Source: a virus
Taxonomy: Duplodnaviria; Caudoviricetes
Reading direction: 5' to 3' (one strand)
IMG/VR virus record: IMGVR_UViG_3300028044_000972
Coordinates: 1-50,293 of that record
Length of the DNA stretch: 50,293 nucleotides
A program made the position numbers and the translations under genes. Of this stretch, positions 4,721-47,644 are shown in pieces; position 1 is the first letter of the stretch, and every line of letters begins with the position of its first letter. The notes beneath the pieces were generated by a model that was not told where the DNA came from, searched no databases, and saw only the letters and a list, made by a program, of their open reading frames with translations.

Positions 4721-4723
4721 TAG

Positions 4724-5695: not shown

Positions 5696-5703
5696 ATTAT
5701 TCG

Positions 5704-8094: not shown

Positions 8095-8096
8095 AG

Positions 8097-9292: not shown

Positions 9293-9298
9293 AATGTT

Positions 9299-11652: not shown

Positions 11653-11656
11653 ATAA

Positions 11657-32223: not shown

Positions 32224-33149
32224 AAAGTCGTGGCGCCGGGCAACCCCCCAGCTGCACCGCCGCCTTCCACATCGCCGCCCTCACCCCGACCGCCGGCGCC
32301 CCTTATATGTTCGCCAGCAACCGATGCGGTTGCGTCTTCTGTAGAATGGGCCCTTTGCCCAAAATTCTGGTTTTCCGAATCAATCCACCGGGGGGCACCA
32401 TCGCCGACGCCCGCACCCCCCCCGCCCCCCTCACCGGCACCGGGGGGAGGCACGCTCGGCACTCCGTCAGTGGTCCGAGAAGTGGTGCCCTCACCCGCTT
32501 GCACACTGTTAGCAGGTCCGATAACATCTGATTGCAGATCAGACGAGGCCTCGAGCAGCCCGACGACCGAGCCCTCAAGGCCGGCCGCCCTTTGTCCGGG
32601 CGTTTCCGCGGGAACACCCATTGAAATGACCTCGAACTCCGCATCGACCACCGGCAACGCATCGAGGTAGGCCTGCACCTGGTCGGGCTTGACCTCGACC
32701 CGCTCCACCCTGCTCGTCGCCTCGCCGGCCAGCAGTGCATACTTGTCGACTACGACGGCCAAGGTGATGGCAGCGTCCTTGGCACTCTTTAGATCCGGGA
32801 TCAGCTCGATCACCTTCTCGGCTGACAGGCGCCGGGCCGTCCCGAGCATCTTCATCAACTCCTTTTTATCCTGCTCTATAGAAATGCCCTCACGCTCACG
32901 CACCGCAACGACCGTGTTCCGACTGACCCCGAGCGCCCGTGCCGCAGCCGAGATGCTCAGACCCTCGGCCGCCATCCGGACGATCGCCGAGTAGATGCCT
33001 GGCCGATCCCGGAACAACCGCTCCCCGGTGAACTCACCAGCTTGAGCCAGCCTTTCACTGGCTTCCCTTTCCTCCTCAGAAAAAAAAGAGAAGGCGGGCG
33101 AGGCGCGTTCAGCCCGGGCGGCCGCTAGGATAAGCGACGAGTCGGTCAT
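32112..33149 (-). CDS. HTH protein, terminase-small-subunit-like, with a long low-complexity tail
   Basis: GLSISAAARALGVSRNTV HTH; AITLAVVVDKYALLAGEAT segment resembles TerS oligomerisation regions. Confidence 0.55.
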   Translation of the reverse strand: MTDSSLILAAARAERASPAFSFFSEEEREASERLAQAGEFTGERLFRDRPGIYSAIVRMAAEGLSISAAARALGVSRNTVVAVREREGISIEQDKKELMKMLGTARRLSAEKVIELIPDLKSAKDAAITLAVVVDKYALLAGEATSRVERVEVKPDQVQAYLDALPVVDAEFEVISMGVPAETPGQRAAGLEGSVVGLLEASSDLQSDVIGPANSVQAGEGTTSRTTDGVPSVPPPGAGEGGGGGAGVGDGAPRWIDSENQNFGQRAHSTEDATASVAGEHIRGAGGRGEGGDVEGGGAAGGLPGATTLCKRTKKKGGPTPASSPRKPTLKKAPISKKKKGGSAC

Positions 33150-33370
33150 GCCACGCGCAACTTCGGACGTTTGCTGATCCGGTGAGATTCCAGCCAGGAC
33201 AAGACGGCCGGCTCCGGGATGACCACCCGAGAGCCCACCCGGTAATGCTCGAGGTCGCCGCGGCTCAGCGCCTGGCTGACCGTCGTGCGTCCCAGGCCGG
33301 TCCGCCGGCACAGCTCAGCAACGCTGAAACAGGTCGGCAGGCTGTATGTTTCCGTGTGCTGATTTGACAT
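33146..33370 (-). CDS. Excisionase-like HTH protein
   Basis: FSVAELCRRTGLGRTTV...GDLEHYRVGSRVVIP. Confidence 0.8.
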   Translation of the reverse strand: MSNQHTETYSLPTCFSVAELCRRTGLGRTTVSQALSRGDLEHYRVGSRVVIPEPAVLSWLESHRISKRPKLRVA

Positions 33371-33398
33371 ACAAAAAAAGAAAAAGGGGCGGGTGGGG

Positions 33399-33611
33399 TC
33401 AATCCGGCCACGCTTGGCAGTTGTCGGGCGGCATGGCGTGCTCGGCGCAATATGCGGCGATCGCGCCCGCGGCCGATTCCGCATGCACCAGCTCGCGCCA
33501 GGCACCAGTCAGCGGGCAAAATCCCTGCACCATGAAGCGGCGGCGGGCCACCAGCCGCGGCGCCCAGGTCCGGCTCGAGGCCGGCCGCTCCATCGTCGCA
33601 GCCTGGCTCAC
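33399..33611 (-). CDS. Hypothetical early protein
   Basis: 70 aa; GTG start overlaps the upstream stop. Confidence 0.5.
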   Translation of the reverse strand: MSQAATMERPASSRTWAPRLVARRRFMVQGFCPLTGAWRELVHAESAAGAIAAYCAEHAMPPDNCQAWPD

Positions 33612-33712
33612 TTGCCACCCCTTTCAAACAAGCGTTCGAATGAGTAGAGCACCCCGGCCGCAGCCACATTGAAAGCCACCAGCAAAATAAAAAGGACGGC
33701 CGAGTCGCTCAT
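33608..33712 (-). CDS. 34-aa single-TM peptide
   Basis: Hand-translated MSDSAVLFILLVAFNVAAAGVLYSFERLFERGGK; overlaps both neighbours. Confidence 0.5.
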   Translation of the reverse strand: MSDSAVLFILLVAFNVAAAGVLYSFERLFERGGK

Positions 33713-33885
33713 GCCGCCACCTCGCACTCCGTATTGAGTAGCGCCGTTTTGCGCCGCTCCAGCTCCTCGATGATTAAACGCCGGACGACCGCGGATCGGC
33801 TCAGATACTGGCTCCGCGCATGGTCATGGATCTGATGAAAGACATCCTCCGGCAACGTCACAGTCAGTGGAACGAGTTTTGCCAT
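33709..33885 (-). CDS. 58-aa ribbon-helix-helix regulator in the Cro position
   Basis: Hand-translated MAKLVPLTVTLPEDVFHQIHDHARSQYLSRSAVVRRLI... Confidence 0.75.
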   Translation of the reverse strand: MAKLVPLTVTLPEDVFHQIHDHARSQYLSRSAVVRRLIIEELERRKTALLNTECEVAA

Positions 33886-33970
33886 GGGGTCTTAATCCCA
33901 TTATTGTGAGTTCTTGACAAGAAAAACTTAAGAAAGTTGAAGATTCTTGCGGCACTGGTATTTTGTCCCC
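33886..33970. promoter_or_regulatory. Divergent promoter/operator region of the genetic switch
   Basis: AT-rich; TTCTTG-A-CAAGAA inverted repeat; TTGAAG-16-TATTTT ending 6 nt before the ATG at 33971 (leaderless-like). Confidence 0.6.
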
Positions 33971-34243
33971 ATGAAACGCACAAAGAAACCCCGTAACCAC
34001 GGCCCCGGCAGCAAGTCAGTTTACATCTCCACCAGCATTCCCAAGCACATCGACGCCGAGCTCCGGCGGCTCGCCTCCCAGTCCGAGCTCACCCGCGGCG
34101 GCATGGCCCGCGAATGCATAGAAGACGCCGTCACCCGAGGCCTGGTCGTCAGTAAGACCCGGCGCAGCAGCACCGTCCTCGAGTATCCCCTGCTCCACCC
34201 CGAAAACCCCACCGTCCGCGCTGCCGACGATGCGGGACTATAA
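33971..34243 (+). CDS. Ribbon-helix-helix regulator in the repressor position
   Basis: VYISTSIPKHIDAELRRLASQSELTRGGMARECIEDAV. Confidence 0.7.
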   Translation: MKRTKKPRNHGPGSKSVYISTSIPKHIDAELRRLASQSELTRGGMARECIEDAVTRGLVVSKTRRSSTVLEYPLLHPENPTVRAADDAGL

Positions 34244-34296
34244 TCTTGCCAACCGAGTATCTGGAAGGCAATATCCTCCGCGGACCATGGGCCGGC

Positions 34297-34602
34297 TCAT
34301 GGTTTTGATTTAGGCCAGTCCCCGCGCCGCGGCCGCGGCTCCACCGCCGGCGGCTGCAGATACGCGCCGAGCCCCGCCAGCGCCCCACACAAAGCCATCG
34401 CCAGCAACCAACGCCAGGACTCGCCGATCGCGCCCACCAGATTCGTCGCCCAGGAGAATCTCGTGCCCAGCTCCCACGGCTCAAAGACAGCCCCATCCGT
34501 CCACATCGCCGCCGTGATCGGCGAAGCCAGGAGCAAAATCACCACGCCCCAGCCGCCCGCCAGCAGGCAAACCCAACTCAACACCGGCCGCCAACGATTC
34601 AT
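34297..34602 (-). CDS. Membrane protein with two predicted TM segments
   Basis: Two hydrophobic segments; ATG overlaps the stop of the displaced gene fragment. Confidence 0.6.
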   Translation of the reverse strand: MNRWRPVLSWVCLLAGGWGVVILLLASPITAAMWTDGAVFEPWELGTRFSWATNLVGAIGESWRWLLAMALCGALAGLGAYLQPPAVEPRPRRGDWPKSKP

Positions 34603-34691
34603 GGTCCGAAACTAAGCGCCGGGCCCACCCCCGACAAGCCCCGCAAATCAAAGAGCATCCGCTCCGGCACCGGCTCCCCATAGCGCACCAT
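34599..34691 (-). pseudogene. Displaced original 3' end of the lipoprotein gene 35635..35988
   Basis: Encodes MVRYGEPVPERMLFDLRGLSGVGPALS; 34615-34691 matches 35648-35724 at 73/77 nt. Confidence 0.85.
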
Positions 34692-35078
34692 CAGAGCACC
34701 AGCCCGCGGAGGACAACGCCCGCCAGGCGAAGTTGTCGGAGGACCTGTTCCGGCGGCGCCAGTTAACGTCCTGGCCAACACACCACCATGCTGCAACTGC
34801 GCGCCTGAGGGCGCGGCCCCACCAGTTAAGTCCGCGGGATTGAGCAATCGGAACCGATCACTACACGCTCGACACGTTTGCGCGGAGGCGTCGGCCAACG
34901 TAACGCAGAGAAACGCACCTCACTAACTTCCCCCGGAAAGTTGTCTATCGGCGGGGAATGGCCGTCCGCGGTGGTCAGAACCGGCGTTGCAAGTAGTCTT
35001 GTGCGGACCTGTTCCGGCGGCGCCAGTTAACGTCCTGGCCAACACACCACCGCGTTACGTTGAGAGCTTGAACACGAC
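34692..35078 (-). ncRNA. Candidate ~390-nt structured RNA with two identical 47-nt modules
   Basis: Repeats at 34741-34787 and 35005-35051; closing stems 34896-34906/35052-35062 and 34703-34710/34831-34838; extended -10 TGGTATAAA at 35091-35083. Confidence 0.55.
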
Positions 35079-35145
35079 TTCATTTATACCATCCATCCAC
35101 CGCCTCAGGTGCGTAAAAATATTTTCAAACAATGCATTTTTTTTA

Positions 35146-35173
35146 TTGACATAACCCAACGATTGGTTATTGT
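35146..35173 (+). promoter_or_regulatory. Sigma70-type promoter with an overlapping operator-like palindrome
   Basis: TTGACA-16-TATTGT; ATAACC-N8-GGTTAT at 35151-35170; A/T tract upstream. Confidence 0.75.
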
Positions 35174-35182
35174 GATGGCGTT

Positions 35183-35554
35183 ATGACCACCACAAACACA
35201 ACACGTCAGGCTGCCGCAACGCTCGGCAGCATCACCAGCGAATCCAAAGCGCGGGCCGCCCGTCAGAACGGGCTCAGAGGAGGCAGACCAGCTGCTCTGA
35301 CAGGAGGCCGCGCTGCATTCGCCGCAGCCTGCGCCGAGGCGCATTTCAAAAGCGGGGTGCACGATCCCTGCGTGCGCTACTCCACCACTCGCGGGTTTCA
35401 CGTCGAGAGCAGTCTGGTTCCCGCTCGCCGCGGTGTCGTCTGGCAGGAGGAGGCTGTCTATCGGCTCGACACGCTGAAATACATTCCTCGCGTCGGTCAA
35501 TACCGCGAAGTGCGCGCGGAGATTTTGGAGCGTCTGGCCGAGGACGACAACTAA
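35183..35554 (+). CDS. 123-aa protein with an N-terminal basic LGS..S..KARAARQNG..GGRP motif (putative DNA-binding)
   Basis: Own promoter and terminator; oriented against the surrounding genes. Confidence 0.75.
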   Translation: MTTTNTTRQAAATLGSITSESKARAARQNGLRGGRPAALTGGRAAFAAACAEAHFKSGVHDPCVRYSTTRGFHVESSLVPARRGVVWQEEAVYRLDTLKYIPRVGQYREVRAEILERLAEDDN

Positions 35555-35577
35555 CAGGCCACCAATACGTCGCAGCC

Positions 35578-35616
35578 AACCCCGCCCTGCTCCTGGTTGA
35601 GCGCGGCGGGGTTTTT
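35578..35616 (+). terminator. Intrinsic terminator
   Basis: AACCCCGCC...GGCGGGGTT stem ending in a T run, between convergent genes. Confidence 0.8.
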
Positions 35617-35634
35617 CGTGAGCGTCTCGCAAGC

Positions 35635-35988
35635 TCACCGCCACGACAGCGCCGGGCCCACGCCTGACAAGCCACGCAAATCAAAAAGCATCCGCTCCGG
35701 CACCGGCTCCCCATAGCGCACCATTTTCCGCTCCCAGGCCCCGCTCGAGTGCGTCACCGTAATCGCATTGACCCCCAAAGGATACCCCCGCGCCGACGAC
35801 CGCACCCGCACCGCGATCGGCGCCACCCCCACATAGCCCGAATTATGGTCCACCCAGCACCCCCGAGGAATCGTCTGCACCATCACCTCCTGGAAATGCT
35901 CCACCGGCGGAAAGGATGCCTCCGGCTCCGGCCTCGAAGCACACCCCGCGGCCGCCGCCGCCATAACGAGTAGCACGATCAGCCTCAT
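35635..35988 (-). CDS. Lipoprotein with a PEGA-like domain
   Basis: MRLIVLLVMAAAAAG|C lipobox; VQTIPRGCWVDHNSGYVGVAP; overlaps the integrase stop. Confidence 0.65.
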   Translation of the reverse strand: MRLIVLLVMAAAAAGCASRPEPEASFPPVEHFQEVMVQTIPRGCWVDHNSGYVGVAPIAVRVRSSARGYPLGVNAITVTHSSGAWERKMVRYGEPVPERMLFDLRGLSGVGPALSWR

Positions 35989-37139
35989 AACGGCGCCGCC
36001 TCCTCCAGCAAATCATGGTAATAATTCCACGTCGTCTTAAAATCCCCATGCCCCATCACCACCGCCGTCGCCGGCAGTCCGAACCGCTGGCAATACTCCG
36101 CCCCGAACTGTTTACGCAACTCATAAGCCCCCTTCGTCCGCTCCGGCACAAACTTACGCACGAACCCATTGATCGACCGCTCCGTCAACGTCACCGCATC
36201 CGTCATCGACGAACGAGGAATGACATAACCCTCCCGCGACTGCAGCGCCCGCCGCAACTGCCCCAAGATCCGCCACCGCACCGGCACATCACGCGCCGTT
36301 CCCTTCGGGAAATACCACGAATTATCCGGCAGCACCCGCCGCTCAAACGACCAGAGAAACGACCGCTGCCCCCGCTTCAGCCACTCCCAGCGCAGACCCG
36401 CCACCTCCGAATTCCGCAGCCCACACCAGCGCATCAGAGCATACACCGCCCAGATCCGCCGATCCTCCGCCGAGCTCGAGCGCCGCAGCACCTCCGCCGC
36501 CGCATCCATCGCCATTAGGCGGTCCCGCCCGATCAACTTATAGCCCCGCACCCGCAGCTCCCGCGCCGACGTCTCCGCCCGCACCAAGCGCAGCTCCGTC
36601 AAGTCCGGCAACACAAGCCCCGCCTGCGCATACCAACGCCGCGGCTGATCGGCAAACACCGCCCGGATCTGCCGCCAGGTCGAAGCCCGACCCTCCGGCG
36701 AGCCCGGCCACGCCCGGAGATACCGCTCCAACTCCTCCGCCGTCAGCCGAGTCATCGACACCGAGTCCGCATCAGCACCCGCGACCGCCCGCACCCACTT
36801 CCGCAGCGTCGAAGCATTATTGCCCCGCGTCAGCGCCGGCGACCGCTCCAACCACACCGCCAGCAAATCCCCCACCGACGCATACCCCGGGCGCTTCATC
36901 GTCGTCCGCGCCTGGCCATCGTGACGTAATTCGCGGGCAATAACTTTGGCTTGAACGAGAGCCTCCTTGTAATTAGTTTTGCCCGTCGACCGCTTAAACC
37001 GCCTGCCATGCACCTGCGCCCTGTAATAATACACCTCCGAGCCCGGCTCCTTGTAAATGGAGACCTCGGAATGCTTGCGTTGTTGTTGGGCCACTTGGGC
37101 CACTTTCAGTGCCACTTCCATGCGAACAAGATCGAACAA
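35985..37139 (-). CDS. int: Tyrosine integrase (start uncertain)
   Basis: CGLRNSEV, PKG, AYELRK (Tyr where HxxR usually has His), MGH...TTWNYY; N-terminal YYYR...RFKRSTG arm-binding domain. Confidence 0.9.
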   Translation of the reverse strand: MFDLVRMEVALKVAQVAQQQRKHSEVSIYKEPGSEVYYYRAQVHGRRFKRSTGKTNYKEALVQAKVIARELRHDGQARTTMKRPGYASVGDLLAVWLERSPALTRGNNASTLRKWVRAVAGADADSVSMTRLTAEELERYLRAWPGSPEGRASTWRQIRAVFADQPRRWYAQAGLVLPDLTELRLVRAETSARELRVRGYKLIGRDRLMAMDAAAEVLRRSSSAEDRRIWAVYALMRWCGLRNSEVAGLRWEWLKRGQRSFLWSFERRVLPDNSWYFPKGTARDVPVRWRILGQLRRALQSREGYVIPRSSMTDAVTLTERSINGFVRKFVPERTKGAYELRKQFGAEYCQRFGLPATAVVMGHGDFKTTWNYYHDLLEEAAPL

Positions 37140-37321
37140 AGCCGAACAGCATGCAAGCCAAATTTCGAAGTAAGATCAGAAACCTCATCAGAGGGCAGTG
37201 GCCCTTTTATGAGAACTTACAAGAACAAACGCGGCCATAGCTCAATTGGATAGAGCATCTGACTACGGAGCAGGCCTTTTTCTCTGTCCGATTCCCTGTT
37301 GGGCCACTTTACGGACCACTT
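37084..37321. other. attP: GGGCCACTT-type arm repeats on both sides of a tRNA-derived core
   Basis: TGTTGGGCCACTT at 37084-37096 and 37297-37309; further copies at 37097, 37111 and 37313. Confidence 0.75.
37231..37269 (+). tRNA. 5' half of tRNA-Arg(ACG) (att core, not a complete gene)
   Basis: GCGGCCA TA GCTC AATTGGATA GAGC A TCTGA CT-ACG-GA; similarity stops after the anticodon loop. Confidence 0.9.
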
Positions 37322-37340
37322 CCCTGCCCCGTTTCGCCCT

Positions 37341-40300
37341 CTAAAATCTCCGGTTGAGATACTCCGCGGCCACCTGGTCCGGCGAGCCCTGCGGGATTTG
37401 CTTGAGCAGCTCGAGCGCCTTCTCCAGCTCCGCGATCTGCCCGCGGTTGCCGATGAGCAGACTTTGCGCGTAGCGAGTCTGCACCGTCCGCATGTTCCGC
37501 TCATTGGCGAAATCCCGTTTTAGCGAATAATACTTCGCCACCCCCTGCATGCCCGAGAGCACGCCCATCCCTTTGCGCAGATCCTCCATGTAAGCCAGCT
37601 GCACCTGCAGATGCCGCAGCTGATCACTGCCCAGGTCCTCCGCGGGAAACTCCGGATCGCGCAGCATATTCCAACCCTTCGCCTTCAGCCGCTCATCGAG
37701 CAGCCGCAGCCGGTCCTCCACCGCCGTCACCGACCGCACCGCCTGGCTGCCGAAACCGATCGGATCGCGGACAAACAACCGCCCCACGAACGGCACATCC
37801 GCCATCTCCATCATCGGCCGGCCCCGGTCGATCGACTCCGCCAGGCGCAGCGTCTCATCCGCCTGACGCGAGAGCGCCTGTTGCACGATATATTGCAACT
37901 TCGCTGGCGAGTAATTCATCATCGTCCCCACCTTCCGGTAAAACTCCGGCGTTGTGCTGTAGTATTGCTCACTCGCCGGCAGCTGCACCATCCACGGCGC
38001 CACGATATGCTTCTGGCGAAACGTCGACCAATTCATGTTCGCCTCCATGATCGTCGCCAGCTGCGGGCCGAAGAACTGCAGCCCGCTCCCCGGGTCCACG
38101 ATCCGTTTCAGCAGCATGCCCGCCGTCCGGTCCGCGTCCACCTTCGGCCGCCCCAGGAGATCATCCATCGTCGCATTATAAACCACCGAGCCCATCACGC
38201 CCTCCGGCCCGTAGGGAAACGGCACCGAGAACCCCGCCAGATCCATGAACGACAGCCGATCATCCACCACCCGTTGACGTTCCCGCTCCTTCTCCTCCTC
38301 ATCCATCATGAGGTAGCGAGCGATCGCCGCCCCGCCGAACATCACCGGTATCATCACCAAGAGCCGCGTCCACGCCGTCCCCCGCACCGCCGGGTCCGGA
38401 TCGGAAAGTTTTTGTGCCACATTGCGCACGCCCTGCAGCATCGGATTGAGGAACCCCGGGATGCTCATGGCAATTTTCGCATCGGCAATCCCCGAGTGCT
38501 CATTGAACTGCCCGCTCGCCGTCCAATACTTCGCCAGCGCCTCCTCATCCGTCGCCCCCCGCTGCAGCGCCGCCACCGCCGCACCCTCACGGCCGGCCGT
38601 CTCGAAGAACGCCGCCATCGCCCGCCCACCCGTCACCAGGTTGATCAAATCCCCCGTCTTCCAGATCGGAAACAACCAATTACTCGGCTGCAGCACCGTC
38701 GCCACCGTCTTGATCACCGGGTCCTTCGCCTGGCTCACATAGAAACCCTCACTCAACCACTGCCAGATCGCCCCGTGCTTGATCGAGGCCAGCATCTCCT
38801 GCTCGCTCGGCTGCACCCGCGAAAGCAGCAAACCCTCCGAGAACACCTGCGGATACTTCTTCGTAAATTTATTGACCACGCCCTTCGTATGCGCCCAGCC
38901 CGGCACCCAGCCGATCGGGTCCGGATTGAGCAACGTCTGCGTGAACGTATCGCGGAACAAATTCCTCAACGCAAAGACCGCACCCTGCGTGATGTTCCGC
39001 TTCCAATTCTGCGTCATCGGCCCCACCAGCCAGGACGCCGCCTTACCCATCTTCGACGCCGTCTGCGGAGAAGCAAAGAGCCCGAAGATCGCCGGATCAC
39101 CCAGCTGGTAATACTCCCGCACCCCATCCCGCAGCAGCGACACCACATTCACGTCCGTCGGTTTCACCGGCCGCCACACATCACGGAAGCTCCAGGAGAG
39201 ATTCACGTCCTCCGCCTTCACCTCCGGCCGGAAGCCCAGCACCTTCTCATAGGCATCCCCGATCGACTTCATCACCCAGCCCAGCGCCTCCTCCTTCGAG
39301 ACCGACGCCGCCGCCTTCATCGGCATCTTCATCTTCACCATCGTCGAGCCCGCCAAGATCCGAGCCTCCGCCGGCAGCGACAAGTCCTTCGCCACCGCCG
39401 CCATATTGTCATAGAGTTTCAACCCGAAGCGATTCCAGTAGTAAGCCTCGAACATCTCCCGCGTCCGCTCCTCCGTCACCTCATCGATATTCCGGATCGC
39501 CTCCCCCGAGCCCCGCGCCCGATAGACCCCCGCCGACATATCGCCCCGCCCGCGGCCCGCCGCGCCGCGGCCCGCCGTCATCACCCGCGGCAGCGGCCAA
39601 TAGCCAGGCCTCGCCCCCTGCATCCGCGCCCGGTCCATCCCCGAGATCAGCCCGCCCGCCTCCTTCACCTCCAGGATAAGGTCATGGAAGCGCGACTGCT
39701 CCTTATACATCCGCGTAAAATTTGGAATATCCTGCACCGCCATCGCCACGATCGCCTTCAAGTCCTCCGGCAAGATCCCCTCCCGCATCCCCGGATATTC
39801 GAGGCCCCCATTCTCCCACCGGTTCAGCGACTCCTGCGCCCACGCCGCCTGGTCAAACTGCGCCAACTTCGACGCCGGCACCTTCTTCCGCAAGTCCGTC
39901 CAGGACTCGCCCGTCAGGTAGCGAAAACTCCCATCCTTCTCCACAATGCGCAACCCCTTCGACGTCCCCGTCCCACTGATCGCCAGCTGCGTCTCCGCCC
40001 CGATCGAGAGGATCATGTTGTAAGCCGACATCAACGGCGTCAGATTCGTCGACCGCACCAGCCGCGCCTTAGTCAGCGCCGCCTTGTAAGCCGTCTCCGT
40101 CTCCTTCCGCTGCTTGATGATCGCCCGCGTGATCTTCCGATCCAGCGACGACACCGGCGCCCCCGAAGCGATCGCATTCACCGCCGCCTCGCCCCCGCGG
40201 ATGATCGCCCCGATCAACTCATTGGCCGAAGGCCGCACATTCGGCGGCGCGTTAAACATCGCCCACCGCGTCGCCACATCCTGCCCCTGGAAAGCATTCA

Positions 40301-43300
40301 CCGCCCGCGCCGCATCCCGCAAGAGCTTCGCCATGCCCGGATAAAACCGCTCCGCCGCCGCCGAGATCGCCGCCGACACCTGCAGATTCTGCACCGTCGC
40401 CGGGTCCGTCAGCAGCAGCCGCGTCCACTCCGCCACGCCCTCACCCCTCCGGTAGCTACGCTGACCCTCCGGCGAGAGCGACGCCGGCGGATCACTCGCC
40501 ATGCTGCCCGGCCGATTCGTCAGCGCGATCAGCTCCGCCGCGTGCGGCACGAAGACATCCGGCAACCGTGCCCGCAGCAAATATTCCAACCCATGCCCCG
40601 CCTCATGGAAATTGATCTGGCTCTGCGTCTCCCGCGTGTAAGCCACATGATTCGCCGGCTTATAGTGCGCCGGATGCGTCCGCGACGTCTGCGTCGTCGA
40701 CCGCCGCATCTCCAAGCGCACCGCCTCATTGACGAAGTCCACGATCGACCGGAACCCCCAGCGTTGTCCTGGTCGGAAATTCTCCACCCCCTTGATCAGC
40801 CGGCGCCCCGCCGAAGTCTCCCCCCGAGCCAGCACCCAATCCGGAGTCTGGAGCGCCGCCATCCCCACCGGAATCGCCCCCGGCGGCACCTGCGCCCCCC
40901 CACCCGACCGCACCGTAGCCGGCGGCGTCAACGGATCACTCGACACCGACCCCGGCGGCTCCATCGCCCTCGAGCTCACCGCATACGGAGCATCCGGCAT
41001 CGCCTGCCCGCGGGTTTGCCTGTTGACATCTTTTGGCTGCGTGGTAGCTTGACTTTGGTTTGATCTAACCGCCGCAAGGCGTGAAGCCACCGCTTCGAGA
41101 GGCCCGACGGAAACGTCGGGCTTCTGTATTTTAGGGCGAGGCAGCGATACCCCAATGCGCCCTTCAATGTCTGCCAAAACGCGATCCGGCGCTTGTAGCC
41201 AATCTCCGCGCTTATTTGGCGTCACAAAGTCTTGAATTGCCGCCGTGCTTTTAGAGAAGGCTGATACGTCGGCATGGTCGCTTATTCTCACCGAAACTGA
41301 TGCCTGCTCAACAACTCCAGCATCATCGTCCAAGTCCCAAGCAAAATTGCTGGTGTCACGCTTGTCCTGCACACCGGCATCGTAAAGCCGCTTGCCAAGC
41401 GCTGGCTCGAAATCAATCACAACGTCCATATACATGGAGTTGCTTTTGCTACTGCCCTTGATTCTGGAAAAACTTACACCCGCCACTCCATCTTGACCGC
41501 GCAGCGTTTTTGCGCGCGAAAGACTGTCCCGCATTGCGTCTCGTTCTATCTCGGGCCGAGCGGCGTCTGCCACTTCTGCGCCAACTTCAAGCAATCCTTC
41601 TGCTGCATCTTGCGCCGTGCTATAGGGTCCAAGCTCTCGCTCGCCGGCATCTACGAAATACGTTCCCTTGTTTGTATCAAGCGACACATTTAAGTCTGGC
41701 GTCAAGCGCCAGCTGCGGATGGCTCCATCGGATTCCGTGGGCTCCCCAAAAATTTGCTCTGGTACATCCGGCATTCCCCGAGATCCTGCCACAGGACCAT
41801 CCGGCATCGCCCCCGGCGGCACCTGCGTCCCCCCACCCGACCGCACCGTAGCCGGCGGCGCAAGGGTCAAGTCCGGCCGCTCCTCCACCCGTGGCGCCGG
41901 CGTTGTAGCCGCGGCAGTCTCTGCCGCGCCAGGCATTTGTGGCCGTGCCCCCCGCATCTCCAGCGGCACATCCTCCATGCTTTGCGTCGCCATGCCGAAA
42001 ATTTCCCGCCCCGACCGCAACCGATTACCCAGCAGCTCGATCAGGTCCGCCTCCGTCTCCACCCGGAAGCCCTTCGCCTTCAGCGCCATGGCCATCTCAT
42101 CGAGATCCATGCCATCCCGGCGGAAGAGCTTATTGATAAAGACCCCCTTCTGGTTATCGCCCCCCTTGCCCTTGCCCGCGCCCTTTGCCTCCTCATAGAG
42201 CGCCTTCAGCTCGCCCGACCACACCGCCCGCTTCGCCCCCGACTTCGGCGCCGGCAGTCCGCCCAGGTCGATCACCGCCGCCAGCAACTCCTCCGCACCC
42301 GCGTCCGCCATACTCTCCCGATAGTCCGCATCCTGCCCGCCCAGGTATTCCTCATAATCCCGCAGCGTCTGCGCATTCAGCGTCGCCGTCCCCGTCGCCG
42401 GGTCCAGGTCATAGAACGGCACCGACAAATCATAAACCTGGAACGCCTTCACCGACACCGGCTCCCCCGCATCGATCGCCGACTTCACGATCTGCAAATG
42501 CTCCGAGAGCAGCGCATTCCAGTTATCCGTCTCCGTCTCCTCCAGGTCGATCCCCCGCTCATTCGCCGTATCCAGCGCCCAATTAAAAGGCTCCGCCATC
42601 GCCGCCGAGACCGCCCGCGGCACCGCCACGGCCGCCGAGGCCGCCGGCCCCGGCATCGGAATCGTCACCGTCCCCGAAGGCAGGACATTGACCGGCGCCG
42701 TCCGCGGCACCGAAACATCCGCCGCCGCCGCTTTCCCGGGCGCTGGCAAAGCCTGTGGCACGTCCGCCTTGGCCCGAGCCACTGCACCCGCCGGCAGCAT
42801 CACCGGCACGCGGTAGGGCACGCGAGCCGCCGCACGGCCCACCGAAGGCACGAGGCCCGCCACCGAAGTCGTCGGCACCTCCACCTCGAGCGGACCCGTC
42901 CGCACCCCGCCCGCCGTATCCATCCGGGCAATGGCCGCCGAGATCGGCGGCTGCGCCTCCCAGACCAGCTTCGTCTCCGCCGCCGTCAGCGGCGTGCCCG
43001 CCTTCATCTTCGCCGCCACCGCCGCCACATCCTTCGCCCTGGCCATCCGGTTGTTGAGGAAAAATCCACCCGTCAAAGCACCCACGCCCGCCGCCGCGGC
43101 AAATCCCCCCGGCGTGATCTCCTGGCCCCGCACCGCCGCATCGATCGGATAAGCCACCACACCCGTCCCGGCGCCCAGCCCAGCCGCCGTCCCCGCCGTC
43201 CGAGCCACCTGCGGCAACCCGCCATCCTGGAAAGCCGTCCGCAATCCCCGGGCGCCCTGCGCCACCGAGACCGGCAGCGCCAGCGCCACCATCCCCATCT

Positions 43301-44348
43301 CGCCCCCCGCCTTGTGCATCGGAAACAACTCCGCCGCCTTCATCACATCGTCGTATTCCGTAAAATGTTCGCCCAGCTTCTTGTAGATCGCGTCGTAGCC
43401 CACGCCCGCCGCAATGCCGCCGCCGATCGCGCCCGCCACCCCGCCCACCACCGCCGCCGCCGGTGCAAAGGGAGCACCCGCGACCGTCGCCAAGGCCGCC
43501 GCTGACGCACCCGCCGCCAAGAGCTTCGCTCCCCCGGCCGCGCCCACCGTCATCGCCCCGCCGCGGCCGGCGCCCTGCAAGATCGCCAAGAGCCGAGGGT
43601 CCGCCTGCGCCTTCTCCTCCAGCTTCCGCCGGTCATCCATCACCTTGAAAATTTTCGCCTCGTCCGCCTTGATCTTCTCATAGTTCGACCGCGGCAAGAT
43701 CCCCGCGGCAAACGCCTCCTCGACACCCTGGGTAAATCGCTCCGGCGACGACTGATCAAAGACAATCTGCCCACCCTCCGAAGGCACCAGCCGCGGCCGC
43801 CGATTCAGCACCGGCTCAGCTACCCCGGGCGCCGCCGCCATCGGTCCCCGCGGCGCCACCGGCGCCATCCCATCGAGCCCCTGCTCCGGTCCCGAGGTCG
43901 GGTCCACGACGAGCGACCCCGTAAATTGAAACGCCGGTCCCTTCGCATCGAAAGTCACATCCGTCCCATCCGCCGCCTCCGGCGTCGTCACCGGCTTCGG
44001 AGTCGGCCGCGGCGCCGGCAGCTTAATCTCCGGCGCCCGTTGCTCCGCCCCCTGGAGAAAGGCCAACGCCTCCTCATCCGATCCGAACCCCGGCCCGCTT
44101 GTCTGCTCCGCCTCCAAGGTAGGGCGCGGCGTCTGCGGCAAATCCTCATCCTCCTGCGGCAGCCGCGGTTCCCCCCGCGCATCGAGGTCATTGAGGAAGG
44201 CGGCATCCGCCGCTTGGACCAGCCGATCCGGCCCCGGGTCCATCTCCACCGGAGGTTCCGGTGCAATATCCAACTGCGGGTCCGCCACCGGACCCCCGTA
44301 GAGAAAGTCCAGCGCCTGCTGGTCAGATTGGAATGCGGCGAGGGCCAT
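37341..44348 (-). CDS. Giant polyvalent/ejection protein B (2335 aa) with an HExxH motif and an LPD38-like C-terminus
   Basis: NFHEAGHGLE...GEGVAEW; VPFPYGPEG...EANMNWSTF...SPAKLQY. Confidence 0.8.
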   Translation of the reverse strand: MALAAFQSDQQALDFLYGGPVADPQLDIAPEPPVEMDPGPDRLVQAADAAFLNDLDARGEPRLPQEDEDLPQTPRPTLEAEQTSGPGFGSDEEALAFLQGAEQRAPEIKLPAPRPTPKPVTTPEAADGTDVTFDAKGPAFQFTGSLVVDPTSGPEQGLDGMAPVAPRGPMAAAPGVAEPVLNRRPRLVPSEGGQIVFDQSSPERFTQGVEEAFAAGILPRSNYEKIKADEAKIFKVMDDRRKLEEKAQADPRLLAILQGAGRGGAMTVGAAGGAKLLAAGASAAALATVAGAPFAPAAAVVGGVAGAIGGGIAAGVGYDAIYKKLGEHFTEYDDVMKAAELFPMHKAGGEMGMVALALPVSVAQGARGLRTAFQDGGLPQVARTAGTAAGLGAGTGVVAYPIDAAVRGQEITPGGFAAAAGVGALTGGFFLNNRMARAKDVAAVAAKMKAGTPLTAAETKLVWEAQPPISAAIARMDTAGGVRTGPLEVEVPTTSVAGLVPSVGRAAARVPYRVPVMLPAGAVARAKADVPQALPAPGKAAAADVSVPRTAPVNVLPSGTVTIPMPGPAASAAVAVPRAVSAAMAEPFNWALDTANERGIDLEETETDNWNALLSEHLQIVKSAIDAGEPVSVKAFQVYDLSVPFYDLDPATGTATLNAQTLRDYEEYLGGQDADYRESMADAGAEELLAAVIDLGGLPAPKSGAKRAVWSGELKALYEEAKGAGKGKGGDNQKGVFINKLFRRDGMDLDEMAMALKAKGFRVETEADLIELLGNRLRSGREIFGMATQSMEDVPLEMRGARPQMPGAAETAAATTPAPRVEERPDLTLAPPATVRSGGGTQVPPGAMPDGPVAGSRGMPDVPEQIFGEPTESDGAIRSWRLTPDLNVSLDTNKGTYFVDAGERELGPYSTAQDAAEGLLEVGAEVADAARPEIERDAMRDSLSRAKTLRGQDGVAGVSFSRIKGSSKSNSMYMDVVIDFEPALGKRLYDAGVQDKRDTSNFAWDLDDDAGVVEQASVSVRISDHADVSAFSKSTAAIQDFVTPNKRGDWLQAPDRVLADIEGRIGVSLPRPKIQKPDVSVGPLEAVASRLAAVRSNQSQATTQPKDVNRQTRGQAMPDAPYAVSSRAMEPPGSVSSDPLTPPATVRSGGGAQVPPGAIPVGMAALQTPDWVLARGETSAGRRLIKGVENFRPGQRWGFRSIVDFVNEAVRLEMRRSTTQTSRTHPAHYKPANHVAYTRETQSQINFHEAGHGLEYLLRARLPDVFVPHAAELIALTNRPGSMASDPPASLSPEGQRSYRRGEGVAEWTRLLLTDPATVQNLQVSAAISAAAERFYPGMAKLLRDAARAVNAFQGQDVATRWAMFNAPPNVRPSANELIGAIIRGGEAAVNAIASGAPVSSLDRKITRAIIKQRKETETAYKAALTKARLVRSTNLTPLMSAYNMILSIGAETQLAISGTGTSKGLRIVEKDGSFRYLTGESWTDLRKKVPASKLAQFDQAAWAQESLNRWENGGLEYPGMREGILPEDLKAIVAMAVQDIPNFTRMYKEQSRFHDLILEVKEAGGLISGMDRARMQGARPGYWPLPRVMTAGRGAAGRGRGDMSAGVYRARGSGEAIRNIDEVTEERTREMFEAYYWNRFGLKLYDNMAAVAKDLSLPAEARILAGSTMVKMKMPMKAAASVSKEEALGWVMKSIGDAYEKVLGFRPEVKAEDVNLSWSFRDVWRPVKPTDVNVVSLLRDGVREYYQLGDPAIFGLFASPQTASKMGKAASWLVGPMTQNWKRNITQGAVFALRNLFRDTFTQTLLNPDPIGWVPGWAHTKGVVNKFTKKYPQVFSEGLLLSRVQPSEQEMLASIKHGAIWQWLSEGFYVSQAKDPVIKTVATVLQPSNWLFPIWKTGDLINLVTGGRAMAAFFETAGREGAAVAALQRGATDEEALAKYWTASGQFNEHSGIADAKIAMSIPGFLNPMLQGVRNVAQKLSDPDPAVRGTAWTRLLVMIPVMFGGAAIARYLMMDEEEKERERQRVVDDRLSFMDLAGFSVPFPYGPEGVMGSVVYNATMDDLLGRPKVDADRTAGMLLKRIVDPGSGLQFFGPQLATIMEANMNWSTFRQKHIVAPWMVQLPASEQYYSTTPEFYRKVGTMMNYSPAKLQYIVQQALSRQADETLRLAESIDRGRPMMEMADVPFVGRLFVRDPIGFGSQAVRSVTAVEDRLRLLDERLKAKGWNMLRDPEFPAEDLGSDQLRHLQVQLAYMEDLRKGMGVLSGMQGVAKYYSLKRDFANERNMRTVQTRYAQSLLIGNRGQIAELEKALELLKQIPQGSPDQVAAEYLNRRF
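40873..41860. repeat. 55-bp direct repeats (40873-40927 and 41806-41860; 54/55 identical) flanking an in-frame lower-GC insert
   Basis: Both encode PPATVRSGGG(T/A)QVPPGA; spacing is 933 bp = 311 codons. Confidence 0.9.
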
Positions 44349-44356
44349 GGACGCTA

Positions 44357-45013
44357 TTATCGCCCACCACGCAACATCTGGACCGCCTGGGCCTCACTGA
44401 TCTGCCCCGCCAGGAAGGCCGCCCGCACCGCCTCCGGCGTTGAAAGCGCCGGCGCCGCCGTCGGCACCGGAACATTCGTCCCCGCCATCGCCGGCATCGG
44501 AGTCGCCGTAGGCTCTGGCGTCGGGCTCGGAGTCGGCGAAGCCGCCGGCGCCCCGCCGCCGAAGCCAAAGAAAGAAGCAATCCCACTTGGTTCCTCCGCC
44601 GCCGCCCCCTGCGGACCCGCCATCTGCGCCAGCGCATCGGCCAAGGCATTCGATTTCGGGTCCATCTCAAACTGATTCGTCGTGCCCTTGATTATAGCCG
44701 GCGCCACTTCCCCCGTCAGCGGGTCGAAGGTGTAAGCCTTGCCATCCTTCCCCTTCGAGAGTTGCTTCGAGCTCCGTTGCACCATCGGCTGCGCCGAATT
44801 CGGCGACGACATAAAGTAAGGCGTCACCTCCTGCGACACCGCATTGGTCGCCATCCCGGTCGTAGGAGTGAACGATTTTTCGGCCGACTGCACATACCTG
44901 GCATATTGGTCTCTGAACTTGGCCAACTCCTTGCCTTTGATCGATTGACCCTCCGCGTAGCCCAACACGGAGCGTCCGTATTCTTGGGCCGACATGATTT
45001 GTGGTTCCGCCAT
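44357..45013 (-). CDS. Internal virion / ejection protein B (218 aa)
   Basis: Same position as 4724..5695 but little visible similarity. Confidence 0.55.
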   Translation of the reverse strand: MAEPQIMSAQEYGRSVLGYAEGQSIKGKELAKFRDQYARYVQSAEKSFTPTTGMATNAVSQEVTPYFMSSPNSAQPMVQRSSKQLSKGKDGKAYTFDPLTGEVAPAIIKGTTNQFEMDPKSNALADALAQMAGPQGAAAEEPSGIASFFGFGGGAPAASPTPSPTPEPTATPMPAMAGTNVPVPTAAPALSTPEAVRAAFLAGQISEAQAVQMLRGGR

Positions 45014-45022
45014 AATGTCTCC

Positions 45023-45553
45023 TTAGAACGTAAAGCTATCCCCGCCGCCTGCGCCGGCCCCCGTTCCATCGCCCCGACCACCAAAGGCATTCGACTGTTG
45101 GTTCATGTAATTCAAGCTCATCAGCTTCGAGCCCGTGTTCTGCATCCCGATGATGTTGTCCCCGATCATCGCCTGCTCGCGGGGATCGCGCTTGAGGAAG
45201 TCCTCGAGGTAGCCGGGGTCAAAGCCCAGTTGCTGCCCGTGCCGCTTCATGAAGTCGCCATAGGCGGTGCCCTTTGCCTCCAAGGCTTTGTTGTTGGCGT
45301 AGGCGCTGATGAAGCTACCGAGGACACTGTCATCGCTCCCCCCGCCACCCTCGCCGCCCTGCATCGCCATTGCCGCCCCGGCCGGTCCACCCATGGCGAA
45401 GCCCGCCACGGCCCGTCCTGCGGTGCGGATCGGCTTCGAGATGTCCGAGCCCAGCTGTTGCATCATCGCCGCGTTGGCCTGGGCGGCCCCGAGCTGTCCC
45501 GAGGCGAGGATTTCCCCGCTGCGGTCATTTACTGTAGGTGCATATTGAAACAT
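45023..45553 (-). CDS. Internal virion protein (starts MFQYAPTVNDRSGE)
   Basis: G/A-rich; syntenic with 5704..6186. Confidence 0.55.
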   Translation of the reverse strand: MFQYAPTVNDRSGEILASGQLGAAQANAAMMQQLGSDISKPIRTAGRAVAGFAMGGPAGAAMAMQGGEGGGGSDDSVLGSFISAYANNKALEAKGTAYGDFMKRHGQQLGFDPGYLEDFLKRDPREQAMIGDNIIGMQNTGSKLMSLNYMNQQSNAFGGRGDGTGAGAGGGDSFTF

Positions 45554-45575
45554 AGTTTTAGTTATTCTGTTAAGG

Positions 45576-46646
45576 TTAAGCCGCCTTCTTCGGGGCCATA
45601 AGTTCTTGCGCGAGGGCGGCACCGATCACGGCCGGCTTGATCGCCAACCGCTTCTTGCCCTGGTGCTCCACCACTTCCACCGCCTCCGGCAGCACCTTCT
45701 GCACGTCCTGCGCCATGAAGCCGACCCGCTTCTGGTCCTCGCCCTTGTAGGCAAACTCATAAGCCTTGAGCCCGAGCACACCCGCCGCCTGGCCCAGCGG
45801 TTTGATGTTCTTCTTCATCCGCTTGTCCGAGAAGATCGACCCACCGATCTGCCCAAACATGCCCATCATCGCCGCGTTATTCATCGCCCCCGCCTGCATC
45901 GAAGCGCCCTGCAGCGCCGCGTTGTTGTTCAGCACCGAATTGCGGTTCGAGGCGAGCATATTCGTGTTGAAGGTTTCGACGCCCCCCGCCGTGCGCAGCG
46001 AGCCGCCAAAGATGTCACCCACCTGCGCCGTCGTATTAGCCAGCGTGCTTTGCCCCAGCCCAAAGGCCGGCCCGATCGATTGACGGAAAGGGTCAAGCTG
46101 GTTGTAAGCACCCGCCAGACCAACCCGCCGCTGTCTGCGCGCAAGGTCCATCTGGTTGACGCCGGCCGCAAAGCCGCGCCGCTGGTCCTGGCGACCAGAG
46201 GCATAGGCGTCCCGGTTAAGGATCTCCGCGCCCAGCGCAGCGTTCCCGGTCGCCATGCCGCGTGCCGCCATTCCGGCCCTTGCCGACTGCGTTGCCATAC
46301 GCTCCTGCTCTGGGCTCAGCGAGCGGCCGAGGGCCAACTCCGCTTCCGCATCCTGCTGGAGCCGCGCCTCGATGGCATTGGGCGCCGAGGCTGCTTGCAA
46401 CTCCTCGCCGACTACACCCTGCGTGCGTTTTAGATATTCGTTGTCTAATTTGCCAGCGAGTTGGTCGGCCGTCTGAAATTGCAGCGCAGTGTATTGCGGG
46501 TAAAGCCGCTTGATCGACTCCTCTTCGGCGGCTATCTGTGCATTGGCTACACGGATCGACGCGGCGGCCATTTTGTCGTAGTCGATTGGTGCCGGTGCCG
46601 GTGGCAGTGGTTGTGGCGCGGGTGCGCTTGGTCCTTTTCCTCCCAT
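45576..46646 (-). CDS. Ejection/pilot protein B with a C-terminal peptidase S74 (autocleaving chaperone) domain
   Basis: FSDKRMKKNIK...GFMAQDVQKVLPEAV; N-terminus MGGKG. Confidence 0.8.
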   Translation of the reverse strand: MGGKGPSAPAPQPLPPAPAPIDYDKMAAASIRVANAQIAAEEESIKRLYPQYTALQFQTADQLAGKLDNEYLKRTQGVVGEELQAASAPNAIEARLQQDAEAELALGRSLSPEQERMATQSARAGMAARGMATGNAALGAEILNRDAYASGRQDQRRGFAAGVNQMDLARRQRRVGLAGAYNQLDPFRQSIGPAFGLGQSTLANTTAQVGDIFGGSLRTAGGVETFNTNMLASNRNSVLNNNAALQGASMQAGAMNNAAMMGMFGQIGGSIFSDKRMKKNIKPLGQAAGVLGLKAYEFAYKGEDQKRVGFMAQDVQKVLPEAVEVVEHQGKKRLAIKPAVIGAALAQELMAPKKAA

Positions 46647-46650
46647 AGTT

Positions 46651-46995
46651 TTATCCTCCTGTTTTTTTTATGATCTTGTCCCAGCGGTAGACGCGGGGCT
46701 CAAATTGTTGACGGCGATGCCATGCGACATATTGGTGCGGCTTCGGCGCCACGCGCAGAAACTCGCCAACAGCATTTGCGTGCCCAGCAGCAGCAGCCAG
46801 GCGCACGAACCAGCAGTTGGGATCGCCGCCTTCAAAGGTTTGCTCCTCCGCATTCCAGCGTGTTTCGCTGGCCAGCAGGAAAACCTTCGGCGAGTTCCAG
46901 ACGTAGCCGCTGGAGAGATGCTCGCCGAGGAGTTCCCAGAAGTCCGTTGTGTCGTGGGCGTCTTGCCATTGCTTTGCTTTTTGCCATGGGGTCAT
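46651..46995 (-). CDS. Small protein, possibly GNAT-like (MTPWQKA)
   Basis: Homologue of 8097..8459. Confidence 0.45.
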   Translation of the reverse strand: MTPWQKAKQWQDAHDTTDFWELLGEHLSSGYVWNSPKVFLLASETRWNAEEQTFEGGDPNCWFVRLAAAAGHANAVGEFLRVAPKPHQYVAWHRRQQFEPRVYRWDKIIKKTGG

Positions 46996-46997
46996 GC

Positions 46998-47642
46998 TTA
47001 AAACTTCACGCAATACAACAGGGCGATGTTTGCGGGGCGGGTTTCGTCTGCTGCGGTTCCGGGAACCATTCCGACATCGTATATCCCTGGGCCCGCCCCC
47101 TGGAGAATCGCGCCGCCGCCGCCGCCGGCGGCAATATTTGAATATCGTATTTGGTGATCGTGATTCTTTATGCCGTCTTGCTCTTTAAGAGCAAATGCCT
47201 TGTTGTAAGTTGTCCCGCTGATCGTCTGCGACCCGCTGCCACGCACAAAGATACCGCGCAGGTCGGGCAGGTTAAAGGTCGTGCTGCCGTTGCCACCGCC
47301 GTACGTTGTTCCAATCGCAGCAAACAAATCCGCGTATGTGCCAACTCGCAGGACCGGATCACCATTGGCCGCAAGCCAACCAGCAGGCGCCGAGTTCATA
47401 GCGAAGGGCATGACGGCACCGGCGGGGAGCAACGACTGCTGTGTCACTGTGGCCAACTTCGCCGTAGTCACGTTGGCATCCAAAATGTTCGCCGTGGTCA
47501 CCGCATTCGAAGCAATGTCCGCCGCCACAATGCTCCCAGCCGTCAGCGCCACGGTGCTCTGGCTAAGTTGGTTTAGCTTGACCGGCGTGACGTTCTCGCC
47601 AGAGACAAAGGTTTTGATCGGGGTGATTGTGAATGTTGCCAT
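46998..47642 (-). CDS. Tail fibre protein with a phage tail collar domain
   Basis: PAGAVMPFA..APAGWL...LFAAIGTTYG...FNLPDLRG...ETRPANIALLYCVK. Confidence 0.9.
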   Translation of the reverse strand: MATFTITPIKTFVSGENVTPVKLNQLSQSTVALTAGSIVAADIASNAVTTANILDANVTTAKLATVTQQSLLPAGAVMPFAMNSAPAGWLAANGDPVLRVGTYADLFAAIGTTYGGGNGSTTFNLPDLRGIFVRGSGSQTISGTTYNKAFALKEQDGIKNHDHQIRYSNIAAGGGGGAILQGAGPGIYDVGMVPGTAADETRPANIALLYCVKF

Positions 47643-47644
47643 AA

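Follow-up and report, generated by a model that had tools for sequence, protein, structure and literature searches.

The window analysed here spans the whole of an IMG/VR virus record of 50,293 bp (IMGVR_UViG_3300028044_000972; Duplodnaviria, Caudoviricetes). Near its integrase gene (int), between a lipoprotein gene and a membrane-protein gene, it carries a 1,033-bp insert that consists of 956 inserted bases besides a 77-nt duplication of the end of the lipoprotein gene. An initial annotation, made from the sequence alone, had described this insert as a recombinase-free cassette, and the present analysis re-examined its anatomy and its relatives. A repeat search placed the two copies of the gene end at 34615-34691 and 35648-35724, a direct repeat with a spacing of 1033 that matches at 73/77 positions (95%). 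The other direct repeats of at least 70 nt in the whole window are only those of a second, diverged genome copy ~38.35 kb away, so the 77-nt repeat is not due to chance. Both copies encode MVRYGEPVPERMLFDLRGLSGVGPALS, and therefore the four differences between them are all synonymous. Read on the gene strand from the left to the right copy, these silent differences are C/T, G/T, G/A, and G/C, and every one of them lies 3' of the first 38 nt, which are identical.

The right copy (35648-35724, minus strand), defined by the repeat search and allele comparison, lies within the intact lipoprotein gene (35635-35988, minus strand) and completes this open reading frame (ORF) of 117 aa as ...ALSWR*; the protein has a signal sequence ending in ...AAAAGC, in which the lipobox was read by eye. 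The left copy and its ...SFGP* tail (34599-34691, minus strand) represent the displaced 3' part of a lipoprotein allele like those in two relatives, L002 and L007. This fragment ends the ORF 34599-34898 (minus strand) and overlaps by 4 nt the start of the 101-aa membrane-protein gene (34297-34602, minus strand; membrane character read by eye), so written that stop and ATG share the sequence ATGA. The repeat starts exactly at an ATG codon, with the frame and the ATGA overlap retained. The number and silence of the differences, the left copy ending over the start of the membrane gene, and the right copy ending in ...SWR* had all been recognized in the initial annotation, and the repeat search and ORF translations bear them out.

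Relatives were collected with the lipoprotein. The IMG/VR scan yielded 6 confirmed loci among 28 pattern hits, and a genome scan, in which 1 of 50 pattern hits was confirmed, yielded L012, a 1,195-nt contig labelled as a Chthoniobacterales metagenome-assembled genome; the host of this temperate phage group probably belongs to the Chthoniobacterales. L002 and L007 are collinear with window positions 41001-35648 at 92.6% and 91.5% identity, respectively, and a second collinear block covers 34692-29912 in L002 (89.7%) and 34692-31274 in L007 (88.3%). In both relatives, the two blocks overlap by exactly the 77-nt segment, and the 1,033 bp are the sole large difference from the window across ~10 kb of collinear flanks. 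L002 and L007 are the empty alleles that had been proposed as a check: their lipoprotein ends in ...SFGP* and overlaps the membrane-gene ATG as in the window, and this single end corresponds to the left copy of the window, the tail of which is identical to L002 at 18/18 positions. No intergenic sequence resembling an attachment (att) site is present at the insertion site of these empty alleles.

L004 and L005 are more distant: their lipoprotein ends in ...SLGP* and overlaps a different gene, again by ATGA, and they become syntenic with the window again only from ~34300. The lipoproteins of L003 and L012 end in ...SWR*, with different convergent ORFs behind each. The ...SWR* end thus occurs in 3 of the 7 lipoprotein alleles compared (the right copy of the window, L003, and L012), with different DNA behind each, and the ...GP* end with ATGA in the other 4 (L002, L007, L004, and L005). 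As judged from these alleles, the slot behind the lipoprotein gene and next to int is a variable accessory locus with two alternative gene ends. The same cassette was not found at this site in the relatives, but other cargo does lie behind the ...SWR* end in L003 and L012. A second occurrence of the insert was found neither in IMG/VR and INPHARED nor in the scan of Joint Genome Institute (JGI) metagenome contigs.

To which lineage each gene end belongs is indicated by the 227 aligned columns 5' of the repeat. Here the intact lipoprotein gene of the window is 93.8% identical to that of L012 and 88.1-89.0% identical to those of L002, L007, and L003, which are 93-97% identical to one another. The intact gene of the window and L012 also have the same end, CTG TCG TGG CGx-stop. 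Both the 5' part and the end are L012-type, and therefore the ...SWR* end appears to go with the lineage of the intact gene. From this comparison, the ...SWR* end looks native to the lipoprotein lineage and the left copy looks like a hitch-hiking fragment. The ...SWR* end was probably not brought in by a circle, and an intact gene that is L012-type in its 5' part as well as at its end argues against the earlier proposal that the insert carried a replacement gene end. Three silent changes, clustered within 13 nt of the right copy (gene-strand repeat positions 51, 60, and 63), occur in 0 of the 5 other alleles, and the left copy has no unique substitutions in the allele comparison. The three clustered changes sit in the functional copy, in an otherwise very conserved segment; they may be fortuitous, may have been selected for hindering recombination with the left copy, or may allow the gene to evade sequence-specific targeting.

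The inserted bases fall into two parts, of which the first, a filler of 408 of the 956 bases (34692-35099), was traced by searching JGI metagenome contigs for exact matches to a 26-mer from a 47-nt repeat inside it. The 26-mer occurs in two JGI contigs (L010 and L011) and, in IMG/VR, only in the contig of L006. The filler is composed of four L010 fragments of 44, 155, 156, and 48 nt, in both orientations, all from one 1.5-kb stretch of that contig and with 1 mismatch in 403 nt. Fragment P1 (34693-34736, plus strand) is identical to L010 4160-4203, inside a 474-aa ORF. Fragment F1 (34741-34895, minus strand) is identical to L010 5390-5544 and comprises the last 108 nt of the first of two genes for AlpA-like helix-turn-helix (HTH) proteins together with 47 nt downstream. 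Fragment F2 (34896-35051, minus strand) matches L010 5498-5653 at 155/156 positions, is intergenic between the two AlpA-like genes, and holds a 32-nt motif. Fragment F4 (35052-35099, plus strand), identical to L010 5643-5690, is from the start region of the second AlpA-like gene and is inverted relative to F2. The joints 34895/34896 and 35051/35052 are flush, and extra bases stand at two places, C (34692) and CGGA (34737-34740); the sequence shared at the joints is 0-1 nt. The F1/F2 join connects L010 5653 to 5390 head to tail, and because the two fragments overlap in L010, the filler contains a perfect 47-nt repeat (34741-34787 and 35005-35051). This repeat was considered as an att core and ruled out, being simply the overlap of 5390-5544 with 5498-5653. 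Considering that the filler has a single mismatch in 403 nt and that the three unique silent changes are confined to the right copy, the two gene-end copies are old alleles joined recently, not a fresh duplication that diverged afterwards.

A candidate RNA had been placed between the repeat copies. Rfam gave no match in the insert at E<=1 (33000-38000 was clear apart from a chance-level row with E 0.5 elsewhere), and 34692-35099 folds no better than shuffled sequences (z +0.75 on the minus strand and -0.01 on the plus strand), so that the RNA is not supported and the stretch is accounted for by scrambled coding and intergenic pieces of L010. The 99-aa ORF 34599-34898 (minus strand) has no family match, and a search of viral contigs with the AlpA-like protein gave no further contig that encodes it. 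By its composition, the filler is neither a coherent element nor an RNA gene. Concerning its donor, DNA of the L010 type is present in the same sequencing runs as the phage at its own depth, 16-18x in runs X13 and X14 versus 4-5x for the phage. L010 itself carries a Cas9 gene at 1-3048 (minus strand; TIGR01865 at 199 bits with a cutoff of 100, HNH_4 and RuvC_III), which is cut by the contig end and is divergent from phage-like early genes, namely an HTH_17 Xis-like gene, the two AlpA-like genes, and an HTH_36 gene, that are 76-81% identical to genes of the window. This arrangement would be a CRISPR locus of a host next to a cryptic prophage, or else a mobile element that carries Cas9. In positions 1-1438 of L006, L010 4371-5653 is linked to window 35051-28608 via the shared 156 nt, giving a 155-nt tandem repeat; either this third arrangement is real or L006 was assembled as a chimera.

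The second part of the insert (35100-35634) contains one gene. An AT-rich upstream region of 83 nt (35100-35182, plus strand; GC 0.36 versus 0.625 for the window) includes a plus-strand promoter-like site at 35146-35173, TTGACA-16-TATTGT, which agrees at 10/12 positions with a sigma-70-like consensus that may not be that of the host. The initial annotation had divergent promoters here; the plus-strand site is present, but the promoter scan returned no minus-strand site in the insert. The cargo gene (35183-35554, plus strand; 123 aa) is supported by homologues, a profile search, and the predicted fold, in line with the one gene claimed between the repeat copies. It is followed by a hairpin with 15-nt arms and a 6-nt loop plus a T5 run (35578-35616, arms 35578-35613, plus strand), found by inverted-repeat search with the T-run read by eye. 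Hairpin and T5 would form the terminator of the cargo gene, in line with the terminator claimed between the copies, although the terminator scan did not call the hairpin.

With an AT-rich predicted promoter, a 123-aa gene, and a predicted hairpin terminator, 35100-35634 is moron-like in its anatomy. Morons were reportedly first described by Juhala et al. in 2000. An excerpt of PMC3029335 describes a moron as an ORF with its own promoter and terminator, situated between two genes that are adjacent in related phages. Similarly, the genes on either side of 35100-35634 are contiguous in L002 and L007; the segment is part of an int-proximal accessory region, and its single gene, on the opposite strand, has a promoter-like site in AT-rich DNA before it and a hairpin plus T-run after it. 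Unlike a typical moron, it is accompanied by 408 nt of scrambled filler and the 77-nt duplication of the end of a neighbouring gene, and its promoter and terminator are predicted only.

That the moron gene is real is indicated by its homologues, its conserved motifs, and its confident fold. Among 5.8 billion proteins, the cargo protein has two close homologues, at 91% (992-nt contig) and 75% identity (12,395-nt contig), and the profile search collected 104 representatives at E<=1e-3. An N-terminal ...NGxxGGRP motif precedes a conserved domain of ~80 aa, for which the AlphaFold2 model is confident (predicted local distance difference test, pLDDT, >90 over residues 40-120). The protein has no match in Pfam, PHROG, PADLOC, or NCBIfam; its structure has no Foldseek match at E<=0.001 against PDB and BFVD, its best VIA-align Z of 4.8 is under the meaningful level, and the ESM Atlas gave nothing above chance. 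The C-terminal ~80-aa domain (...TGGxxGF...P.VRYS..RGFHVES...DV.W...) defines an unnamed family of small proteins (P0003-P0064), which mostly stand alone, are 85-105 aa long, and have a confidently predicted helix-sheet-helix fold without structural match. In one relative, P0005, a TacA1-like antitoxin segment precedes the domain, which is a lead only.

The cargo gene itself was not found elsewhere in IMG/VR (single-protein query), genome contigs, or INPHARED, and a profile scan retrieved 12 viral contigs with homologues at 38-54% identity. None of these 12 loci has homologues of the int, lipoprotein, membrane, Xis-like, ribbon-helix-helix, or 98-aa genes of the window within the fetched flanks of at most 4 kb, and none has direct repeats within 2.5 kb on either side of the gene. 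At L014, the homologue lies alone on the opposite strand between terminase-like and ParB/methylase-like genes (ORFs read by eye), a placement that, as far as this reading of the ORFs goes, is moron-like behaviour without a duplicated gene end.

Whether such an arrangement exists in nature or arose during assembly was examined in assembled contigs of sequencing runs. At least 0.88 of the sampled words of 34300-36000 are held by 12 of the 22 listed runs (lake-water metagenomes), which may represent one campaign. In run X2, which comes from another sample than the possible source, the region is tiled by Logan contigs of 100% identity, with the novel joints inside contigs; their depths are 38 (34662-34722), 49 (34707-34770), 52 (34866-35034), and 54 (35022-35716), compared with 44-46 in the flanks and 96, ~2x the flanks, in the 47-nt repeat. 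The joints covered are 34691/34693, 34736/34741, 34895/34896, 35051/35052, and 35099/35100. In X14, which belongs to a different study, a 590-nt contig extends across 35216-35805. Run X18 has no cover over 34711-35619 and its contigs end inside the repeat, resembling an empty-site relative in which the site is left unbridged. Loose contig ends at 35346, 35595, and 35630 hint at short similarities elsewhere, and odd contig joints ('goes back 264', 'opposite strands') are accounted for by the L010 arrangement. Neither a circle joint (35724 to 34692) nor an empty-site joint (34691 to 35725) was present in the contigs of X2, X13, X14, and X18, in which rare forms are dropped; the 1,033-bp circle that had been suggested as a check was accordingly not recovered from these four runs.

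An assembly artefact would require that two strains or replicons had been stitched together via the shared 38-nt and 47-nt exact repeats. In its favour, part of a second, diverged genome copy is present in the window as a whole, the same repeats make L006 look chimeric, and L010-type DNA, with which 264 nt are shared, co-occurs in the same runs. Against this, every novel joint lies within a 100%-identical X2 contig at a depth close to that of the flanks and with the 47-nt repeat at about twice that depth, and the region recurs in over half of the listed runs. We consider misassembly of the duplication very improbable. As for the record as a whole, it amounts to ~1.3 genome lengths from two relatives: when window positions 1-12000 were compared with 37300-50293, 7.6-11.9 kb matched 46.2-50.3 kb at 65-89% identity with a spacing of ~38.35 kb, and the L002 contig is 38,343 nt long. 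A giant ORF at 2-4720 (minus strand), cut at the window start, parallels a 2,335-aa ORF at 37341-44348. The two-relative record corresponds either to tandem related prophages or concatemers, or to an assembly that walked from the phage into a relative.

On balance, we regard the region as probably a mosaic joint at which two lineages from a single group of temperate phages meet, and not as a self-contained mobile cassette. One parent would have supplied the int-lipoprotein(...SWR*) module with the moron behind it, and the other the membrane-gene module, still attached to 93 nt from the end of the lipoprotein allele that lay upstream of it (...SFGP*). The two modules would have been joined by non-homologous, out-of-register recombination, and the 77-nt repeat would be a by-product of breakpoints lying 77 nt out of register. 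The gap between them would have been filled with the four short pieces of a third, co-occurring replicon of the L010 type, joined flush or via 1-4 extra bases, a pattern that suggests end-joining or multiple template switches. We infer the order of these events and their enzymology from the anatomy, the empty alleles, the filler donor, the joints, and the L012-type intact gene observed in this analysis. The second exchange, which completes the genome, could have been homologous anywhere upstream, including within the 77 nt; in the latter case, the product would be formally the same as that of a single crossover of a circle, so that the sequence by itself does not separate the two.

Several points weigh against such a joint. 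Neither parent was found: no contig carries the lipoprotein(...SWR*)-cargo arrangement minus the filler, and none combines the own strain of the window with an empty site. Sliding identity to L002 and L007 runs without a sharp lineage break at the lipoprotein gene, so the whole int-lipoprotein-membrane backbone could be one lineage that received the insert. The start of the repeat at an ATG and the kept frame and ATGA would be a coincidence under random breaks, unless coupling was selected. The 3-10 bp of microhomology that go with homology-facilitated illegitimate recombination were not seen at the joints, and all the read evidence consists of assembled contigs, which leave out rare forms.

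The model of the initial annotation was a circle of ~1 kb, holding the ...SWR* end of the lipoprotein gene, the terminator, the cargo, and the filler, that entered by one Campbell-type crossover at the resident 77 nt, with host or phage homologous recombination and no dedicated recombinase. Its premise that the insert is recombinase-free is correct, as the sole supported gene is the 123-aa cargo, which has no recombinase domain, and the 99-aa ORF matches no family. The product is also as expected from such a crossover, with flanking direct repeats, the 38 identical nucleotides first, the differences 3' of them, and a resident-type tail on the left copy; empty alleles are known in relatives, the two flanks of the insert have diverged from L002 and L007 to a similar degree, and the e14 element with its icd-icdC gene ends is a precedent for inserts with replacement gene ends, as far as the excerpt of PMC13626634 goes. 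However, two rare events would be required, the illegitimate formation of the circle and then its insertion, and the circle would be largely scrambled junk from a third replicon. Moreover, the intact gene is L012-type over its whole length and L012 already ends in ...SWR*. Neither diagnostic joint is seen in the contigs of the four runs, a second copy is absent from the databases scanned, and none of the 12 viral cargo homologues has flanking repeats. Overall, insertion of a small circle by single crossover is unlikely. Slightly less likely is one replicative accident, a sub-variant of the mosaic joint with different enzymology, in which a replication or break-induced-replication fork would have left the phage after the cargo, made several template switches on a co-resident L010-type replicon, and returned to a phage template at a point 77 nt before the lipoprotein stop. 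Four fragments of 44-156 nt from one 1.5-kb donor stretch in both orientations, two of them overlapping in the donor and joined head to tail (L010 5653 to 5390), are what such a fork could leave. As a rule, a few bases of microhomology prime template switching, but the joints share 0-1 nt and two of them have 1 or 4 untemplated bases; in addition, the 77-nt copies are different alleles, so two phage templates would still be needed.

Two further explanations start from the site itself. The conserved last ~80 nt of the lipoprotein gene might serve as a recombinase-free docking site for cargo modules that each bring their own ...SWR* end. Three cargos lie behind that end (window, L003, and L012), the window would have been caught after a single crossover with the displaced end not yet lost, and the three silent changes could have been selected to stabilize the duplication or to escape sequence-specific targeting; we hold both the docking site and this view of the window to be improbable. 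More improbable again, the insert would be the decayed remnant of a larger site-specific integrative element, with an integrase and an AlpA/Xis-like protein, that entered at the 3' end of the lipoprotein gene, provided a replacement end in the manner of e14 and phage 21 in icd, and has since been mostly deleted. The insert does include what is left of the 3' end of an AlpA-like HTH gene, together with the motif found upstream of these genes, and L006 links a complete AlpA-like gene to window sequence through these repeats, although L006 may be an assembly chimera with its overlap in the shared 156 nt. The AlpA-like pieces are, however, 99-100% identical to L010, and an old decay does not fit with this lack of sequence divergence. 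In L010, they lie between regulatory/replication-like genes that are syntenic with the early region of the window and not at the end of an element. The pieces are also scrambled and inverted, the 44-nt piece comes from inside a coding region, and the empty alleles are free of intergenic att-like sequence at the site.

Other classes of element were rejected. A diversity-generating retroelement does not apply, as the differences between the copies are not adenine-specific (C/T, G/T, G/A, and G/C); no reverse transcriptase was found among the proteins scanned near the site, which are part of those of the window. A transposon, an insertion sequence, or a miniature inverted-repeat transposable element does not agree with the lack of an inverted repeat at the insert ends among the 11 pairs reported, a duplication of 77 nt with differing copies, and the lack of a transposase. 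Action of the phage integrase on the repeat was dismissed as well, because none of the three positions of the putative arm 11-mer (37086, 37095, and 37299) is near the insert. Flanked by these 11-mers, the stretch 37233-37276 (plus strand), between int and the giant gene, resembles by eye the 5' half of a tRNA; it is exact in L002 and L007 and partial in L003 and L005, and neither ARAGORN nor Rfam made a call there. It is a possible attP core.

The mosaic joint can be set beside three known situations. In Escherichia coli, icd is the integration target of phage 21 and likewise of the e14 element. For e14, the part of PMC13626634 that treats icd describes an alternative 3' end supplied by the element and a displaced pseudogene, icdC, with synonymous and conservative differences. 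The window is alike in that the 3' end of the intact gene lies inside the insert and a displaced 3' fragment on the far side, the two forming a direct repeat of the target 3' end with silent differences only. In contrast to e14, a 15-kb prophage with its own site-specific recombination and SOS-induced excision, the insert is 1 kb long, has no integrase or recombinase of its own, and shows no excised form in the contigs of the four runs; its target is a phage gene, and the 'replacement' end looks native to the lineage. Mosaic boundaries in phage genomes are also the subject of the Hendrix-type model. An excerpt of PMC3029335 attributes such boundaries to illegitimate recombination, possibly aided by phage recombinases. 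An out-of-register joint of related genomes that leaves a gene fragment and extra DNA, without a conserved boundary sequence at the joints, agrees with this; here, unlike there, the filler donor is known at 99-100% identity and all five joints are base-exact, which makes the case unusually explicit, and the exchange could be homologous on one side, at the conserved gene end. Homology-facilitated illegitimate recombination, as outlined in the part of PMC6382021 that cites de Vries and Wackernagel 2002, combines a homologous anchor with an illegitimate joint, uses 3-10 bp of microhomology, and occurs in natural transformation. The lipoprotein gene or int would be a possible anchor and 34691/34693 the illegitimate end, with foreign DNA gained, but the joints in the window are either flush or filled with 1-4 extra bases, and it is phages that recombine with each other. 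Taken together, the insert looks like an ordinary recombination scar between related phages that added one gene, not a new kind of mobile cassette.

The flanking genes bear on what the insert may do to the membrane gene. The tyrosine integrase gene (35985-37139, minus strand; PF00589 at 29.3 bits with a cutoff of 27.1, phrog_1 with E 2e-18) lies upstream of the lipoprotein gene and overlaps it by 4 nt. The membrane gene is now set apart from this pair by the convergent cargo gene and the hairpin, which agrees with the earlier statement that it was uncoupled from the int-lipoprotein transcript. Judged from the arrangement, the membrane gene may be transcribed from within the insert, where the motif that stands upstream of AlpA-like genes points toward it from the filler, and it may be translated by coupling to a 30-codon remnant that starts at the ATG of the repeat. 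The 32-nt motif, which contains a TTCCCC...GGGGAA inverted repeat, occurs at 34927-34958 of the window and in L010 at 5123-5154 and within 5545-5653. In L010 it precedes each of the two AlpA-like genes; its one copy in the filler of the window faces the membrane gene, and it is possibly an operator or promoter element.

If the mosaic joint is the correct reading, the region would open no new mechanism. It would be a natural snapshot of the origin of mosaicism and of a moron in a temperate phage, with the empty alleles, the alternative gene end, the filler donor, and the five joints all legible at base resolution, and the event would be recent, as the filler still matches its source, from the same lake community, at 99-100% identity. 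The joint would also show that a gene-end duplication resembling that of an att site can arise by out-of-register joining, which calls for caution in automated searches for integrative elements. For the biology of this phage group, the cargo family and the lipoprotein/membrane pair beside int are candidates for lysogenic-conversion or exclusion functions.

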